DNA of 10,724 bases from a virus: the UHGV virus genome UHGV-1698711; one strand, given 5' to 3'. The translations under genes and the position numbers were made by a program. This document shows positions 1,647-10,724 of this stretch, piece by piece. Numbering within the stretch: the stretch's first letter is position 1; every line of letters starts with the position of its first letter. The notes below the pieces were generated by a model. It was not told where the DNA came from and made no database searches. It saw nothing but the letters and a program-made list of their open reading frames with translations.

Positions 1647-1692
1647 GGCACAAACCTACAGCCTTGAATGAAGGCTTTCCCCGCCTGCGGTT

Positions 1693-1710
1693 TGTGTGGT
1701 TGTCGGTACA
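1693..1710. promoter_or_regulatory. TGT-N12-ACA dyad (TGTgtggttgtcggtACA) in the divergent P/O intergenic region; candidate Ogr/Delta-type late activator site for the O-operon promoter
   Basis: The motif is read directly from the sequence. P2 late promoters carry a TGT-N12-ACA dyad centred near -55. This centre (about 1701/1702) would put a transcription start near 1756-1760, with a -10-like CATAAG at 1748-1753 and a GGAG ribosome-binding site at 1777-1780 before the O ATG at 1789. Confidence 0.45.
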
Positions 1711-1788
1711 AATACCGCGCATTGTTTCACTGCCCCCATCACCGCAAACATAAGGCTCCAGTAAGTTTTTTCTAACGGAGCACGGCTC

Positions 1789-2638: not shown

Positions 2639-3697
2639 ATGAAGAAGAATACCCGCTTTGCTTTTAACGCTTACCTGCAGCAACTGGCGCGTCTGAACGG
2701 TGTGGCAGTTGAAGAACTGTCCAGCAAGTTCACCGTAGAGCCGTCCGTGCAGCAGACATTGGAAGACCAGATCCAGCAGTCCGCCGCTTTCCTGACGCTG
2801 ATTAACGTCACGCCAGTGACTGAGCAGTCTGGCCAGTTGCTGGGGTTGGGAGTTGGCAGCACCATTGCCGGAACCACTGATACCACCGCGAAAGAGCGTG
2901 AGCCTGTCGATCCGACGCTGATGGTCGATGTGGAATACAAATGCGAGCAGACCAACTTTGACACGATACTGACCTACGCGAAGCTGGACCTGTGGGCGAA
3001 GTTTCAGGATTTCCAGGTGCGTATCCGTAACGCCATCGTGAAACGTCAGGCACTGGACCGCATCATGATCGGCTTTAACGGCGTGAAGCGTGCGAAAACC
3101 TCCAACCGTAGCGAAAACCCGCTGCTGCAGGATGTGAATAAAGGCTGGCTGCAGAAAATCCGTGAGGATGCACCGGATCACGTCATGGGCAGCACCACCA
3201 CGGGCGGTGAAACCACACCGGGCGCAGTGAAAGTCGGGAAAGGTGGCGAATATGCCAACCTGGACGCCGTGGTGATGGATGCCGTCAATGAGCTTATCGA
3301 CGTGGTCTACCAGGACGATGACGATCTGGTGGTGATTTGCGGTCGTGAACTGCTGTCTGACAAGTATTTCCCGCTGGTCAACAAAGAGCAGGAAAACAGT
3401 GAAAAACTGGCTGCCGATATGATCATCAGTCAGAAACGCATGGGTGGCCTGCAGGCCGTGCGTGCGCCGTTCTTCCCGCCGAATGCGCTGCTGATCACCC
3501 GTCTGGATAACCTGTCCATTTACTGGCAGGAGGACACCCGCCGCCGTTCGGTTATCGACAACCCGAAACGTGACCGGATTGAAAACTTTGAATCCGTTAA
3601 CGAAGCCTATGTGGTTGAGGACTACCGCTGCGCAGCACTGGTGGAAAACATTCAGATTGGCGACTTCAGCGCCGCCGCCGCAGAAGCCGGAGCATAA
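2639..3697 (+). CDS. N: Major capsid protein, P2 gpN-like
   Basis: 352 aa ORF, 16 nt after O, with GGAG upstream. Size and position match P2 gpN (about 357 aa). Confidence 0.93.
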   Translation: MKKNTRFAFNAYLQQLARLNGVAVEELSSKFTVEPSVQQTLEDQIQQSAAFLTLINVTPVTEQSGQLLGLGVGSTIAGTTDTTAKEREPVDPTLMVDVEYKCEQTNFDTILTYAKLDLWAKFQDFQVRIRNAIVKRQALDRIMIGFNGVKRAKTSNRSENPLLQDVNKGWLQKIREDAPDHVMGSTTTGGETTPGAVKVGKGGEYANLDAVVMDAVNELIDVVYQDDDDLVVICGRELLSDKYFPLVNKEQENSEKLAADMIISQKRMGGLQAVRAPFFPPNALLITRLDNLSIYWQEDTRRRSVIDNPKRDRIENFESVNEAYVVEDYRCAALVENIQIGDFSAAAAEAGA

Positions 3698-6763: not shown

Positions 6764-7157
6764 AGCGGTGCCTTATGTCCGCAATAACCCGGACAAACTG
6801 CATCTGTTTGTGGATAACGGTTCGCTGGTTGCCACGGGGGCCAGCTCCATGTCGTGGGAGTACCGTTACACCCTGAACGCGGTGATTGAGGATTTCAGCG
6901 GCGACCAGAATCTGCTGATGGCCCCGGTTTTGCTGTGGCTGCGGGATAACCAGCCCGATGCCATCAATAACCCGGCGTTACGGGAAAAACTATTTACCTT
7001 TGAGGTGGATATTCTGCGCAACGATGTCTGTGATATCAGCCTTAACCTGCAACTGACGGAACGTGTGCTGGTCAGCACTGACGGCAGTGTGTCGAGCGTT
7101 GAAGCTGTAGCAGAACCCGATGAACCTGAAGAAATGTGGACGGTGAAACGTGGCTGA
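6726..7157 (+). CDS. R: Tail completion protein, P2 gpR-like
   Basis: Start chosen at GTG 6726 (VNKPQSLRHALNKAVPYVRNNPDKLHLFVDNG...) with AGGAG 7 nt upstream. The track's 6705 position is a TTG. 143 aa. Its stop overlaps the S start. Confidence 0.85.
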   Translation: MNKPQSLRHALNKAVPYVRNNPDKLHLFVDNGSLVATGASSMSWEYRYTLNAVIEDFSGDQNLLMAPVLLWLRDNQPDAINNPALREKLFTFEVDILRNDVCDISLNLQLTERVLVSTDGSVSSVEAVAEPDEPEEMWTVKRG

Positions 7158-7596
7158 ACTGCAGAAGGTGGACGACTGGCTGAGTGCCTTACTGGCGAAT
7201 CTGGAACCAGTCGCAAGAAGCCGCATGATGCGCCAGCTGGCGCAGGAACTGCGCCGGACACAGCAGCAGAATATCAGGATGCAGCGCAATCCAGATGGCA
7301 GCAGTTATGAACCGCGCAGGGTAACAGCACGCAGCAAGAAGGGGCGCATCAAACGTCAGATGTTTGCAAAGCTGCGCACCACAAAATACCTGAAAACTGC
7401 CGCCAGCGCCGACTCTGCCAGCGTACAGTTTGAAGGCAAGGTGCAGCGTATTGCCCGTGTTCACCATTACGGCCTGCGTGATCGCGTCAGTCGCAAAGGA
7501 CCGGAGGTCCGTTACGCAGAGCGCCGCCTGCTGGGTGTAAATGATGATGTTGAGGCAATGACCCGCGACATGATTCTGCAATGGCTGGCGGGGTGA
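7150..7596 (+). CDS. S: Tail completion protein, P2 gpS-like
   Basis: 148 aa ORF from GTG 7150, overlapping the R stop by 8 nt (translational coupling). It is the last gene before the S-V intergenic gap, as in P2. Confidence 0.85.
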   Translation: MAELQKVDDWLSALLANLEPVARSRMMRQLAQELRRTQQQNIRMQRNPDGSSYEPRRVTARSKKGRIKRQMFAKLRTTKYLKTAASADSASVQFEGKVQRIARVHHYGLRDRVSRKGPEVRYAERRLLGVNDDVEAMTRDMILQWLAG

Positions 7597-7599
7597 TCT

Positions 7600-7619
7600 T
7601 TGTATCAGCACTGATACAA
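7600..7619. promoter_or_regulatory. Dyad TTGTATCAG-ca-CTGATACAA containing TGT-N12-ACA; candidate Ogr/Delta-type activator site of the late promoter for the V-W-J-I-H operon
   Basis: 9-bp arms that are exact reverse complements around a 2-nt spacer, read directly from the sequence. TGT is at 7601-7603 and ACA at 7616-7618. It lies in the 68-bp gap between S and V, where P2 places its V-operon late promoter. Confidence 0.5.
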
Positions 7620-7664
7620 GTTGCAGCACTGCCGCCTTTCTTCCCCTGATGGCAACCTTTCCCT

Positions 7665-8243
7665 ATGAACGCACAATTAACCGAAATCATGCGCCTTATC
7701 ACCAACCTGATCCGCACAGGGGTAGTCACCGAAGTGGACAGGGAAAACTGGCTTTGCCGGGTGAAAACGGGCGAGCTTGAAACCAACTGGATCAGCTGGC
7801 TGACGCTGCGTGCCGGGAATGCCCGCACATGGTGGCGACCATCAGAAGGTGAGCAGGTGGTGCTGCTGAGTCTGGGCGGCAATCTGGAAACCGCCTTTGC
7901 GTTACCCGCCATCTATTCGAATCAGTTCGCGCCACCGTCGACGTCGGCGGACGCCTGCGTGACAGAACATCCTGACGGTGGCTGGTTTGAATACGAACCC
8001 GCCACCGGGCGCTGGTATGTCAGGGGCATCAAATCAATGGTCATTGAGGCCGCTGACAACATCACCATGAAAACCAGTGAGTTTGTACTGGAGGCTGACC
8101 GCACGCGCATTAACAGCGAAGTGGTGATCAATGGTGGCGTTACCCAGGGCGGCGGAGCGATGAGTTCTAACGGGATTGTGGTTGATGCGCATCAGCATAC
8201 TGGCGTCCTGAAAGGCGGCGATACAACCGGAGGCCCGGTATGA
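7665..8243 (+). CDS. V: Baseplate assembly / spike protein, P2 gpV-like
   Basis: 192 aa. MNAQLTEIMRLITNLIRTGVVTEVDRENWLCRVKTGELETNWISWLTLRAGNARTWWRPSEGEQV parallels P2 gpV, and a Gly-rich C-terminus is present. Its stop overlaps the W start (ATGA). Confidence 0.92.
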   Translation: MNAQLTEIMRLITNLIRTGVVTEVDRENWLCRVKTGELETNWISWLTLRAGNARTWWRPSEGEQVVLLSLGGNLETAFALPAIYSNQFAPPSTSADACVTEHPDGGWFEYEPATGRWYVRGIKSMVIEAADNITMKTSEFVLEADRTRINSEVVINGGVTQGGGAMSSNGIVVDAHQHTGVLKGGDTTGGPV

Positions 8244-8599
8244 CGCTTTATAGCGGGATGAACAATACCAGCGGCAAAGTCATTACTGATATTGACCATC
8301 TGCGCCAATCGGTGCGGGACATTCTGCTGACGCCGCAGGGTAGCCGCATTGCTCGTCGTGAATATGGTTCCCTGCTGTCGTCGCTAATAGACCAGCCACA
8401 AAATCCGGCATTACGCCTGCAGGTCATGTCGGCAGTGTATGTGGCGCTGAGTCGCTGGGAACCACGGCTGACGCTGGATTCCATCACTATTAACAGCAAT
8501 TTTGACGGTTCAATGGTGGTGGAGCTGACCGGGCGGCGTAATAACGGTGTGCCTGTTTCCCTTTCCGTATCAACAGGAGCAGAGAATGGCAGTGATTGA
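8240..8599 (+). CDS. W: Baseplate wedge protein, P2 gpW-like (T4 gp25 / GPW family)
   Basis: 119 aa. Position and size match P2 gpW. Overlaps V at its start and J at its end. Confidence 0.9.
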   Translation: MTLYSGMNNTSGKVITDIDHLRQSVRDILLTPQGSRIARREYGSLLSSLIDQPQNPALRLQVMSAVYVALSRWEPRLTLDSITINSNFDGSMVVELTGRRNNGVPVSLSVSTGAENGSD

Positions 8600-9494
8600 C
8601 CTTTCGCAGTTGCCTGCGCCGCAGATAGTGGATGTGCCGGACTTTGAGACGCTGCTTGCCGAACGCAAGGCAGAATTTGTGGCGCTTCATCCGAAAGATG
8701 AACAGGAGGCTGTGATGCGTACGCTGGAACTGGAATCTGAACCCGTCACCAAATTGTTGCAGGAGAACGCTTATCGTGAGCTGCTTCTGCGCCAGCGCAT
8801 TAACGAAGCCGCGCAGGCGGTGATGGTGGCTTATGCGATGGGCGGCGATCTGGACCAGCTCGCCGCCAATTACAACGTGAAACGCCTGACGGTGATACCT
8901 GCTGATGATGACGCTGTGCCGCCCGTTGCGGCTGTGATGGAAAGCGATGAAGCGTTACGCCTGCGTGTGCCTGCAGCCTTTGAGGGGCTTTCAGTTGCGG
9001 GGCCAACTGCAGCTTATGAATTTCATGCCCGAAGCGCCGACGGTCGGGTGGCGGATGCCAGTGCAACCAGTCCGGCCCCTGCAGAGGTGGTGCTGACTGT
9101 CCTGAGTCGCGAAGGCGACGGAACAGCAGAAAAAGACTTGCTGGATGTGGTGGAGAACGCCCTGAACAGTGAGAACGTCCGCCCGGTGGCTGACCGTCTG
9201 ACGGTTCGCAGCGCAGAAATCATCCCGTACCGCGTGGAAGCCACCATTTTTCTCTACCCGGGGCCGGAAGCAGAGCCGGTAATGGCAGCGGCAAAAGCCA
9301 GCCTGCAGAAGTACATCGCCAGTCAGACGCGTCTTGGTCGGGATATTCGCCGTAGCGCCATCTTTGCCGCCCTGCATGTTGAGGGTGTGCAGCGTGTGGA
9401 GCTGGCTTCTCCTCTGGCGGATGTGGTCCTGAACAAAACACAGGCGGCATCATGTACGCAGTGGAGCGTAACCAACGGAGGAACGGATGAATAG
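8586..9494 (+). CDS. J: Baseplate assembly protein, P2 gpJ-like
   Basis: Start chosen at ATG 8586 (MAVIDLSQLPAPQIVDVPDFETLLAERKAEF...), which overlaps the W stop by 14 nt. The track's 8547 start lies deep inside W. 302 aa. Confidence 0.92.
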   Translation: MAVIDLSQLPAPQIVDVPDFETLLAERKAEFVALHPKDEQEAVMRTLELESEPVTKLLQENAYRELLLRQRINEAAQAVMVAYAMGGDLDQLAANYNVKRLTVIPADDDAVPPVAAVMESDEALRLRVPAAFEGLSVAGPTAAYEFHARSADGRVADASATSPAPAEVVLTVLSREGDGTAEKDLLDVVENALNSENVRPVADRLTVRSAEIIPYRVEATIFLYPGPEAEPVMAAAKASLQKYIASQTRLGRDIRRSAIFAALHVEGVQRVELASPLADVVLNKTQAASCTQWSVTNGGTDE

Positions 9495-10092
9495 TCTGCT
9501 GCCACCGGGTTCAACTTCACTGGAGCGCCGACTGGCGCAAACCTGTAGCGGGATTTCTGATTTGCAGGTGCCGCTGCGTGACTTGTGGAATCCGGCTACC
9601 TGTCCGGTCAGCTTCCTGCCTTATCTCGCCTGGGCGTTCTCTGTGGATCGCTGGGACGAGGGCTGGACAGAAAGCGTCAAACGCCAGGTAGTGAAGGATG
9701 CTTTTTATATTCATCAGCACAAAGGAACCACCAGTGCCGTACGGCGGGTGGTGGAGCCGTTCGGCTTCCTGATCCGCATTATTGAGTGGTGGCAGACCGG
9801 AGAAACACCGGGCACGTTTCGTCTGGACATTGGTGTGCAGGACCAGGGCATCACTGAAGATACCTATCTGGAACTTGAGCGACTGATAAGCGATGCCAAA
9901 CCATGTAGCCGTCACATGATCGGCATGTCCATCAATCTGCAGACCAGCGGCCCGCATTGGGTGGGAGCCGCCAGCTATCTTGGCGAAGAAATCACGATCT
10001 ATCCGTATATCAACGAAACGATTATTTCCGGTGGCACCGCGCATGAAGGCGGGGCGGTCCATGTTATTGACACAATGAGAGTGAATCCATGA
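9487..10092 (+). CDS. I: Baseplate / tail-fibre attachment protein, P2 gpI-like
   Basis: 201 aa ORF starting 8 nt before the J stop and ending in an ATGA overlap with H. Position matches P2 gpI. Confidence 0.88.
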   Translation: MNSLLPPGSTSLERRLAQTCSGISDLQVPLRDLWNPATCPVSFLPYLAWAFSVDRWDEGWTESVKRQVVKDAFYIHQHKGTTSAVRRVVEPFGFLIRIIEWWQTGETPGTFRLDIGVQDQGITEDTYLELERLISDAKPCSRHMIGMSINLQTSGPHWVGAASYLGEEITIYPYINETIISGGTAHEGGAVHVIDTMRVNP

Positions 10093-10724
10093 GCACAAAA
10101 TTTTATACCCTGCTGACGGATATTGGCGCGGCGAAACTTGCCAGCGCCGCCGCGCTCGGTGTGCCGCTAAAAATTACCCATATGGCGGTGGGCGATGGCG
10201 GTGGAGTATTGCCAACGCCGGACGCAAAGCAGACGGCACTGGTAAATGAGAAACGCCGGGCTGCGCTGAATATGCTTTATATCGACCCGCAGAACAGCAG
10301 CCAGATTATTGCCGAACAGGTGATCCCTGAAAACGAGGGCGGTTGGTGGATACGTGAAGTGGGCTTGTTTGATGAGTCCGGGGCATTGATTGCCGTGGGC
10401 AACTGCCCGGAAAGCTATAAGCCGCAACTGGCTGAAGGTAGCGGGCGCACTCAGACCGTGCGCATGGTGCTGATTACCAGCAGCACGGACAATATCACCC
10501 TGAAAATCGACCCTGCTGTAGTACTGGCAACCCGCAAGTATGTGGATGACAAAATATCAGAGCACGAACAGTCACGACGTCACCCGGACGCCTCGCTGAC
10601 CGCAAAAGGTTTTACTCAGTTAAGCAGTGCGACCAACAGTGAATCCGAAATACTGGCCGCAACACCGAAGGCTGTGAAGGCTGCATATGATCTTGCAGCA
10701 GGTAAGGCACCTGTCAGTCACACG
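10089..10724 (+). CDS. H: Tail fibre protein, P2 gpH-like; conserved N-terminal part only, truncated by the window end
   Basis: MSTKFYTLLTDIGAAKLASAAALGVPLKITHMAVGDGGG... is the conserved N-terminal module I recall for P2-family tail fibres. The ORF is open to the last base. The receptor-binding C-terminus lies outside the window. Confidence 0.85.
   Translation, partial: MSTKFYTLLTDIGAAKLASAAALGVPLKITHMAVGDGGGVLPTPDAKQTALVNEKRRAALNMLYIDPQNSSQIIAEQVIPENEGGWWIREVGLFDESGALIAVGNCPESYKPQLAEGSGRTQTVRMVLITSSTDNITLKIDPAVVLATRKYVDDKISEHEQSRRHPDASLTAKGFTQLSSATNSESEILAATPKAVKAAYDLAAGKAPVSHT

Follow-up and report, generated by a model that had tools for sequence, protein, structure and literature searches.

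The gap between late genes S and V of the window (the whole stretch of 10,724 nucleotides analysed here) holds a palindrome almost directly in front of the V start codon, which raises the question whether this element marks a late promoter, acts as a hairpin in the RNA or lies there by chance. The genes from P to H are ordered as in the P2 late region, and Klebsiella and E. coli phages of the P2 family (Kp4845-2, KP12, 500465-1) share 95-98% identity with the region; judged from its sequence, the window stems from the late part of a P2-family prophage. Searches against Pfam assigned the ORF before the gap to gene S (Phage_tail_S, PF05069, E 1.2e-41), with coordinates that equal, by offset, those of the annotated CDS in phage 500465-1. 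The ORF behind the gap was assigned to gene V (Phage_base_V, E 6e-18; GpV Apex motif, E 7e-6). In an alignment, the N-terminal residues M1-N2 of V coincide with the beginnings of P2 V and 186 orf32. The palindrome adjoins the head of a late morphogenetic operon, with V-W-J-I directly downstream. Antisense ORFs across the gap (7189-7629 and 7487-7912, minus strand) were taken as spurious; relatives with a 98-100% identical V carry wholly different DNA upstream of the palindrome, so that a gap-spanning ORF cannot be conserved. The coordinates of the features are collected in Table 1.

Table 1. Genes and predicted promoter features at the S-V and P/O gaps, in window coordinates
Feature	Position	Strand	Description
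Gene P start codon	1644..1646	minus	Terminase large subunit; A at 1646, 55.5 bp from the centre (1701.5) of the 1692-1711 site
Second activator site (predicted)	1692..1711	none	TTGTGTGGTTGTCGGTACAA; in the divergent P/O gap, shared by P_P and P_O
Gene S	7150..7596	plus	Tail completion / virion morphogenesis, last gene of the O operon; from ORF list and Pfam
S-V intergenic gap	7597..7664	plus	68 bp; empty state of an accessory-gene locus
Predicted activator (Ogr/Delta/B-type) dyad	7600..7619	none	Core TGT-N12-ACA at 7601-7618
-35 position	7630..7635	plus	TGCCGC; no match to TTGACA
Extended -10 (predicted)	7650..7658	plus	TG at 7650-7651 (-15/-14), hexamer CAACCT at 7653-7658 (-12..-7)
Predicted transcription start	7665	plus	A of the V start codon; from geometry, uncertainty about 1-2 nt
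Gene V	7665..8243	plus	Baseplate spike, first gene of the V-W-J-I-H operon

The palindrome (TTGTATCAGCACTGATACAA) is a perfect inverted repeat of 9 + 2 + 9 bases, TTGTATCAG-ca-CTGATACAA, and begins 4 bp beyond the TGA stop codon of S (7594-7596). Its core (TGTATCAGCACTGATACA) consists of TGT (7601-7603), 12 bases and ACA (7616-7618) and is an exact match to TGT-N12-ACA, the consensus of the P2 late promoters P_P, P_O, P_V and P_F (PMC3931495); the full 20 bases also match the extended form TTGT-N12-ACAA exactly. The dyad is centred at 7609.5, which is position -55.5 when the A of the V ATG is counted as +1.

We consider it highly probable that this dyad is the binding site of a zinc-finger late activator of the Ogr/Delta/B family in the P_V promoter of a P2-family prophage, and that the V mRNA is leaderless. 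After the late-expression switch, the activator would bind the dyad at -55.5 and recruit host sigma-70 RNA polymerase to a promoter that lacks a -35 element and whose extended -10 (TG-g-CAACCT) is weak. In P2, recruitment by Ogr-type activators proceeds via the polymerase alpha subunit. Transcription would then begin at A7665 or within 1-2 bases of it, and the V-W-J-I-H mRNA would start with the V AUG and be translated as a leaderless message lacking a Shine-Dalgarno (SD) sequence. For the phage of the window we infer activator binding, the exact start and leaderless translation from the anatomy of the site, its P2 homology and its relatives.

The hexamer at the -35 position does not resemble TTGACA, as expected of an activator-dependent promoter. 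CAACCT has A at -11 and T at -7 and agrees with the -10 consensus at two positions only, plus the upstream TG; the window thus combines the unrecognisable -35 and the weak -10 that characterise late promoters. A constitutive sigma-70 promoter was rejected, as a scan of 7300-7900 with the sigma-70 consensus revealed no promoter. A7665 lies 7 nt past the -10 hexamer, which is the usual start position. No SD sequence was found before V (anti-SD duplex energy -1.8 kcal/mol in the interval -20..-4), and an in-frame TGA at 7647-7649, 15 nt ahead of the ATG, excludes a longer V or an upstream start. V accordingly displays the sequence features of a leaderless mRNA: an ATG, no SD and no in-frame start upstream. 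ATG is needed as the start codon of leaderless mRNAs. The initial annotation had described a near-perfect dyad about 55 bp before the V ATG, with an Ogr/Delta-type activator core and no strong SD before V. The repeat proved to be perfect, the distance of 55.5 bp to A7665 and the lack of a strong SD were confirmed, and the assignment of the core as a putative Ogr/Delta-type motif gained support from P2 homology, from the geometry kept in the family and from an Ogr/Delta gene in a close relative. The extremely short or absent leader that had been proposed stands as a prediction, consistent with the P2 start on the V ATG, the fixed geometry and the missing SD.

Comparison with P2 revealed the same arrangement. 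The RefSeq record (NC_001895) places the P_V activator site at 10239-10266 (centre 10252.5), the V-operon start at 10308 and the V CDS at 10308-10943; the annotated start is the first base of the CDS and lies 55.5 bp from the centre of the site. This equals the distance from 7609.5 to 7665 in the window, so that the absent leader is the known leaderless V mRNA of P2 and not an oddity. P2 is named among the classic leaderless genes of E. coli in a passage of a later article that cites Christie and Calendar 1985 (PMC4633059); we base the leaderless status of P2 V on the RefSeq annotation and on this secondary citation. The P2 promoter occupies the same place upstream of V, there the first gene of the V-W-J-I-H-G operon, the V start codons are homologous, and P2 likewise has a TG with a CAAyCT-type -10 and no SD. 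However, the P2 site is imperfect (TTGT-N11-ACAA, L001 10240-10260), whereas the window has a perfect TGT-N12-ACA within its 9+2+9 palindrome; the P2 hexamer CAATCT lies at -13..-8 from the annotated start, one base further away than CAACCT; and in P2 orf30 and the O-operon terminator (9397-9433) separate S from P_V, whereas in the window only 4 bp separate S from the dyad.

In phage 186, the gap between gene O (the P2 S homologue) and orf32 (the P2 V homologue) measures 69 bp compared to 68 bp in the window, has no insert of the orf30 type, and shows TTGT at the same offset, a -10-like CATTCT and no SD before the ATG. In contrast to the window, 186 has only the left half of the dyad (TTGTGTG...CGG, L002 9660-9685), its activator is the B protein, and RefSeq annotates no promoter in the O-orf32 gap. 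P2 and 186 both fit the P_V consensus less well than the window does. As the N11 spacing of P2 and the half-site of 186 indicate, the motif is not strictly required in the family, and a perfect match is no proof of strength. A B-dependent promoter probably exists in the O-orf32 gap of 186; searches of open-access text yielded nothing relevant on a 186 promoter there or on leaderless late operons in P2-like phages. Other leaderless mRNAs from mobile elements of E. coli, namely lambda cI transcribed from P_RM and tetR of Tn1721, similarly begin with the AUG and have no SD (PMC4633059), but these are regulatory genes with monocistronic or short messages, whereas V stands first in a long structural operon, and the genes that follow it there have normal SDs. 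The leaderless arrangement of V is already documented for P2, and the finding in the window is correct but ordinary.

A comparison with the S-V regions of P2, 186 and related prophages, as proposed at the outset, was carried out on 162 loci: 80 viral contigs with a nearly identical V, 80 genomes from different species (V identity from 99% down to 42%), P2 and 186. These loci yielded 101 unique V-upstream sequences, which fell into 48 classes upon clustering at 70% identity. An exact TGT-N12-ACA is centred at -55.5 from the A of the V ATG in 79 of the 101 unique sequences, at -56.5 in eight, at -54.5 in three and at -57.5 in one. By class, the motif occurs within -54.5..-57.5 in 41 of 48, compared to a background of 0.0006 per position elsewhere in the same sequences, and the late-promoter geometry is kept to this extent. 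The spacers at -45..-16 are unrelated between classes (mean identity 0.269, against 0.255 after shuffling), yet their length is fixed. With the ATG as +1, A is found at -11 in 42/48 classes and T at -7 in 42/48 (both in 38/48), and TG stands at -15/-14 in 21/48. The median anti-SD energy before V is -1.35 kcal/mol, and values of -6 or below occur in 2/48 classes, against a median of -10.0 kcal/mol for the next gene W, with -6 or below in 40/47.

Individual deviations from this pattern were inspected as well. In a Scandinavium lactucae prophage (L097) the dyad lies 13 bp further upstream (centre -68.5) and V is preceded by an AGAGGA SD; this points to a leaderless V that has become leadered. 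The other class with an SD before V (L104) is without the dyad. Two Xenorhabdus prophages (L155 and L160) contain a further ATGAA ahead of the V start aligned by tblastn, at a distance of 29 and 26 nt. Counted from this upstream ATG, their dyads are centred at -56.5 (L155) and -55.5 (L160) and the -10 is also in register; it appears that the start region has been duplicated or that the V start has been mis-set.

These data bear on a reading in which the dyad is an activator site but V is translated from a leadered message, made from a start further upstream or mainly by read-through from P_O, so that the coincidence with the ATG has no translational meaning. Such a reading, which we regard as improbable, could draw on the weak -10 hexamer, on the start at 7665 being a prediction and on the probable lack of a terminator in the gap, with which read-through transcripts containing V probably exist. 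It is opposed by the missing SD before V, here and in 46/48 classes, while W retains one, by the in-frame stop ahead of the ATG and by the P2 record, which sets the start on the ATG. Moreover, the sole relative with a shifted dyad has gained an SD, and across unrelated spacers both dyad and -10 keep their spacing to the ATG to within about 1 base, a constancy that would not be selected if the ATG were internal to a leader. On the main reading, too, P_O transcripts probably read through into V, where they would present an internal AUG without a ribosome-binding site. If there is no terminator between S and V, and with no SD on such transcripts, efficient translation of V would depend on transcripts initiated at P_V.

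The initial annotation had also considered that the same palindrome might form a hairpin at the end of the O-to-S transcript. Whether as a terminator or as a 3'-end stabilising stem-loop, and whether instead of a promoter or besides it, a role of the palindrome in RNA is very unlikely. The dyad lies just past the S stop and could pair into a 9-bp stem with a 4-nt loop, but three of its nine pairs are G-C and it is followed by GUUGCAGC and not by a U-run. Folding of 7585-7664 and 7597-7630 gave -7.9 kcal/mol for the stem (z -1.0), and 28 of 200 shuffled sequences folded at least as well. In P2, the O-operon terminator after S is a separate hairpin of -26.8 kcal/mol (z -5.8). A terminator scan reported nothing in the S-V gap, and an Rfam search of 7300-7900 revealed no match at E up to 1; the sole terminator-like match lies inside S (7573-7594) and is at chance level (1 found, 0.7 expected). 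The stable G+C-rich stem and the U-run of a rho-independent terminator are both missing from the dyad.

The arms of the palindrome were also compared across the relatives. Long arms of 9-10 bases are peculiar to the compact-gap lineage of the window, against the usual 4-5, and this could be read as a sign of pairing in RNA. However, most relatives, including those with compact gaps, have TTGT/ACAA plus at most one base, other compact-gap lineages have arms of 4-5 bases and 186 has half a site. The mean arm length is 5.2 in compact gaps and 4.0 in the others, a difference driven by three sequences, and a link between compact gap and longer arms as a sign of a terminator was found unconvincing for that reason. 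One variant (L063) has one arm broken without a compensating change. Another (L085, TTGTGCCAccacTGGCACAA) has changes on both arms that preserve the symmetry, which is equally expected of a symmetric protein-binding site. A terminator or RNA-hairpin role of the dyad was rejected on the weak, non-significant stem without a U-run, and the gap between S and V, going by its sequence, probably contains no terminator. The proposal that the hairpin ends the O-to-S transcript is left unsupported, and of the idea that 68 bp compress terminator and promoter functions the promoter part is supported whereas the terminator part falls, as nothing shows a terminator there.

The lengths of the S-V gap are bimodal among related loci: in 86 of them S and V stand 65-79 bp apart, in another 29 the distance is 550 bp or more; a gap of 68 bp is ordinary, given the 69 bp of 186 and these 86 loci. 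P2 does carry orf30 between S and V, as had been stated (RefSeq 9439-10224, minus strand). The inserts in related loci measure 550-1420 bp, are on the minus strand like orf30, are mutually unrelated and always lie between the S stop and the dyad (for example L003, L029, L049, L058, L076, L078, L081, L110, L125 and L159; equivalent to 7597-7599 in the window). They include an FRG domain, a HigB toxin, DUF2971 and DUF6216 proteins and several without a Pfam match. Among loci with a 98-100% identical V there are about ten unrelated inserts upstream, while the dyad keeps its place next to V and its distance from it. That the P2 late region has variable accessory loci is known from earlier work.

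The frequency of the repeat was compared with chance. No other perfect inverted repeat in the window has arms of 9 bases or more and a spacer of up to 4, but a repeat of this kind occurs somewhere in 18% of shuffled windows. The bare TGT-N12-ACA is not enriched (3 found, 2.63 expected). The extended TTGT-N12-ACAA was found twice compared to 0.18 expected, a count of two being reached in just 3/200 shuffles, and one copy is found in the S/V gap, the other in the divergent P/O gap; within the window, these are the two late-promoter positions of P2. The third TGT-N12-ACA (1635-1652, TGTGGTGTTCATGGCACA) overlaps the P start codon and is absent from Fels-2; with about 2.6 matches expected per window it is probably due to chance. 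The significance of the dyad comes from its position and its conservation in relatives, and not from the palindrome by itself.

The relative Escherichia phage 500465-1 (L163), 96.9% identical over window positions 7100-8300, allowed the search to be extended to 39 kb. It contains three TTGT-N12-ACAA only: one lies between P and O, one between S and V, where it equals the dyad of the window, and one 85.5 bp before the tail-sheath ATG. Their positions match those of the four P2 late promoters, of which P_P and P_O use a site in common; P2 also has a single annotated activator site (3057-3087) for both. The 10.7-kb window ends before the activator-gene region, and an Ogr/Delta gene was seen in 500465-1 only, where a 72-aa protein encoded after gene D matches Ogr_Delta (PF04606, E 9e-21) and has the motif CX2CX22CX4C. 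That the palindrome arose by chance, or serves another DNA-binding protein as an operator unrelated to late activation, is scarcely credible: the rates in shuffled windows and of the bare motif would allow it, but the dyad, within a gap of 68 bp, occupies the place that corresponds to P2 P_V, keeps its offset in 41/48 otherwise unrelated classes, and is one of three extended sites in 500465-1, all at late-promoter positions.

With the dyad read as the activator site of P_V, the other late promoters can be compared. P_P/P_O and P_F of P2 and the late promoters of P4 likewise have a TGT-N12-ACA dyad about 55 bp upstream of the start. P_O and P_F differ from P_V in having leaders of about 30 nt with an SD (GGAG before O, GGAGG before the sheath gene), whereas P_V has none. 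On the P side of the second site, a -10-like TAGGTT is located at 1658-1653 (-12..-7 from the P start codon) and no SD precedes P, whose start is the annotated CDS start in 500465-1. From its sequence, the P mRNA of the window appears to be leaderless too, unlike that of P2 and 186. An alignment of the window (TAGGTT-tgtgcc-ATG) with P2 (TAGCCT-tgccgt-G) places the P start codon at the G annotated as the start of the P2 P transcript (3016); in P2 a 23-nt leader with GAGG follows, and 186 likewise has a 23-nt leader with GAGG before P. This comparison was done by eye on nine enterobacterial phages. The leaderless P geometry was also found in Fels-2 (L164), in Yersinia phage vB_YenM_06.16-2 (L165) and, counted from an in-frame ATG 9 nt before the annotated start, in Klebsiella phage ST258-KPC3phi16.1 (L166). 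It is absent from Kp4887-2, BIS20 and Chuche, and the P leader is kept in P2, 186, Kp4887-2 and BIS20.

As the orthologue of a P2 promoter described in 1985, with a textbook leaderless transcript, the P_V of the window carries little weight as a discovery. Its use for annotation is to settle the V start codon and the V-operon boundary, and to identify the 68-bp gap as an accessory-gene insertion site in its empty state. The computational results that go beyond this are modest, namely a promoter-to-ATG geometry kept within about 1 base in at least 41 unrelated classes and a P that is seemingly leaderless in Fels-2-type relatives. They lead to a tentative proposal, which we rate slightly below even, that leaderless initiation has been selected for as a design of the late operons of this lineage and is not a quirk of P2 gene V. 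Its basis is that the V ATG lies at the predicted +1 of P_V whatever the upstream sequence, in dozens of unrelated cases, and despite repeated accessory-gene insertions, and that phages with the Fels-2-type head module (the window, Fels-2 and the Yersinia and Klebsiella phages named above) are without the 23-nt SD leader of P and have P at the predicted +1 of P_P. If this is true, leaderless cistrons would head two of the four late transcripts, leaderless starts could keep the output of low-copy proteins low, and the translation of these proteins could depend on transcripts initiated at the promoter and not on those produced by read-through.
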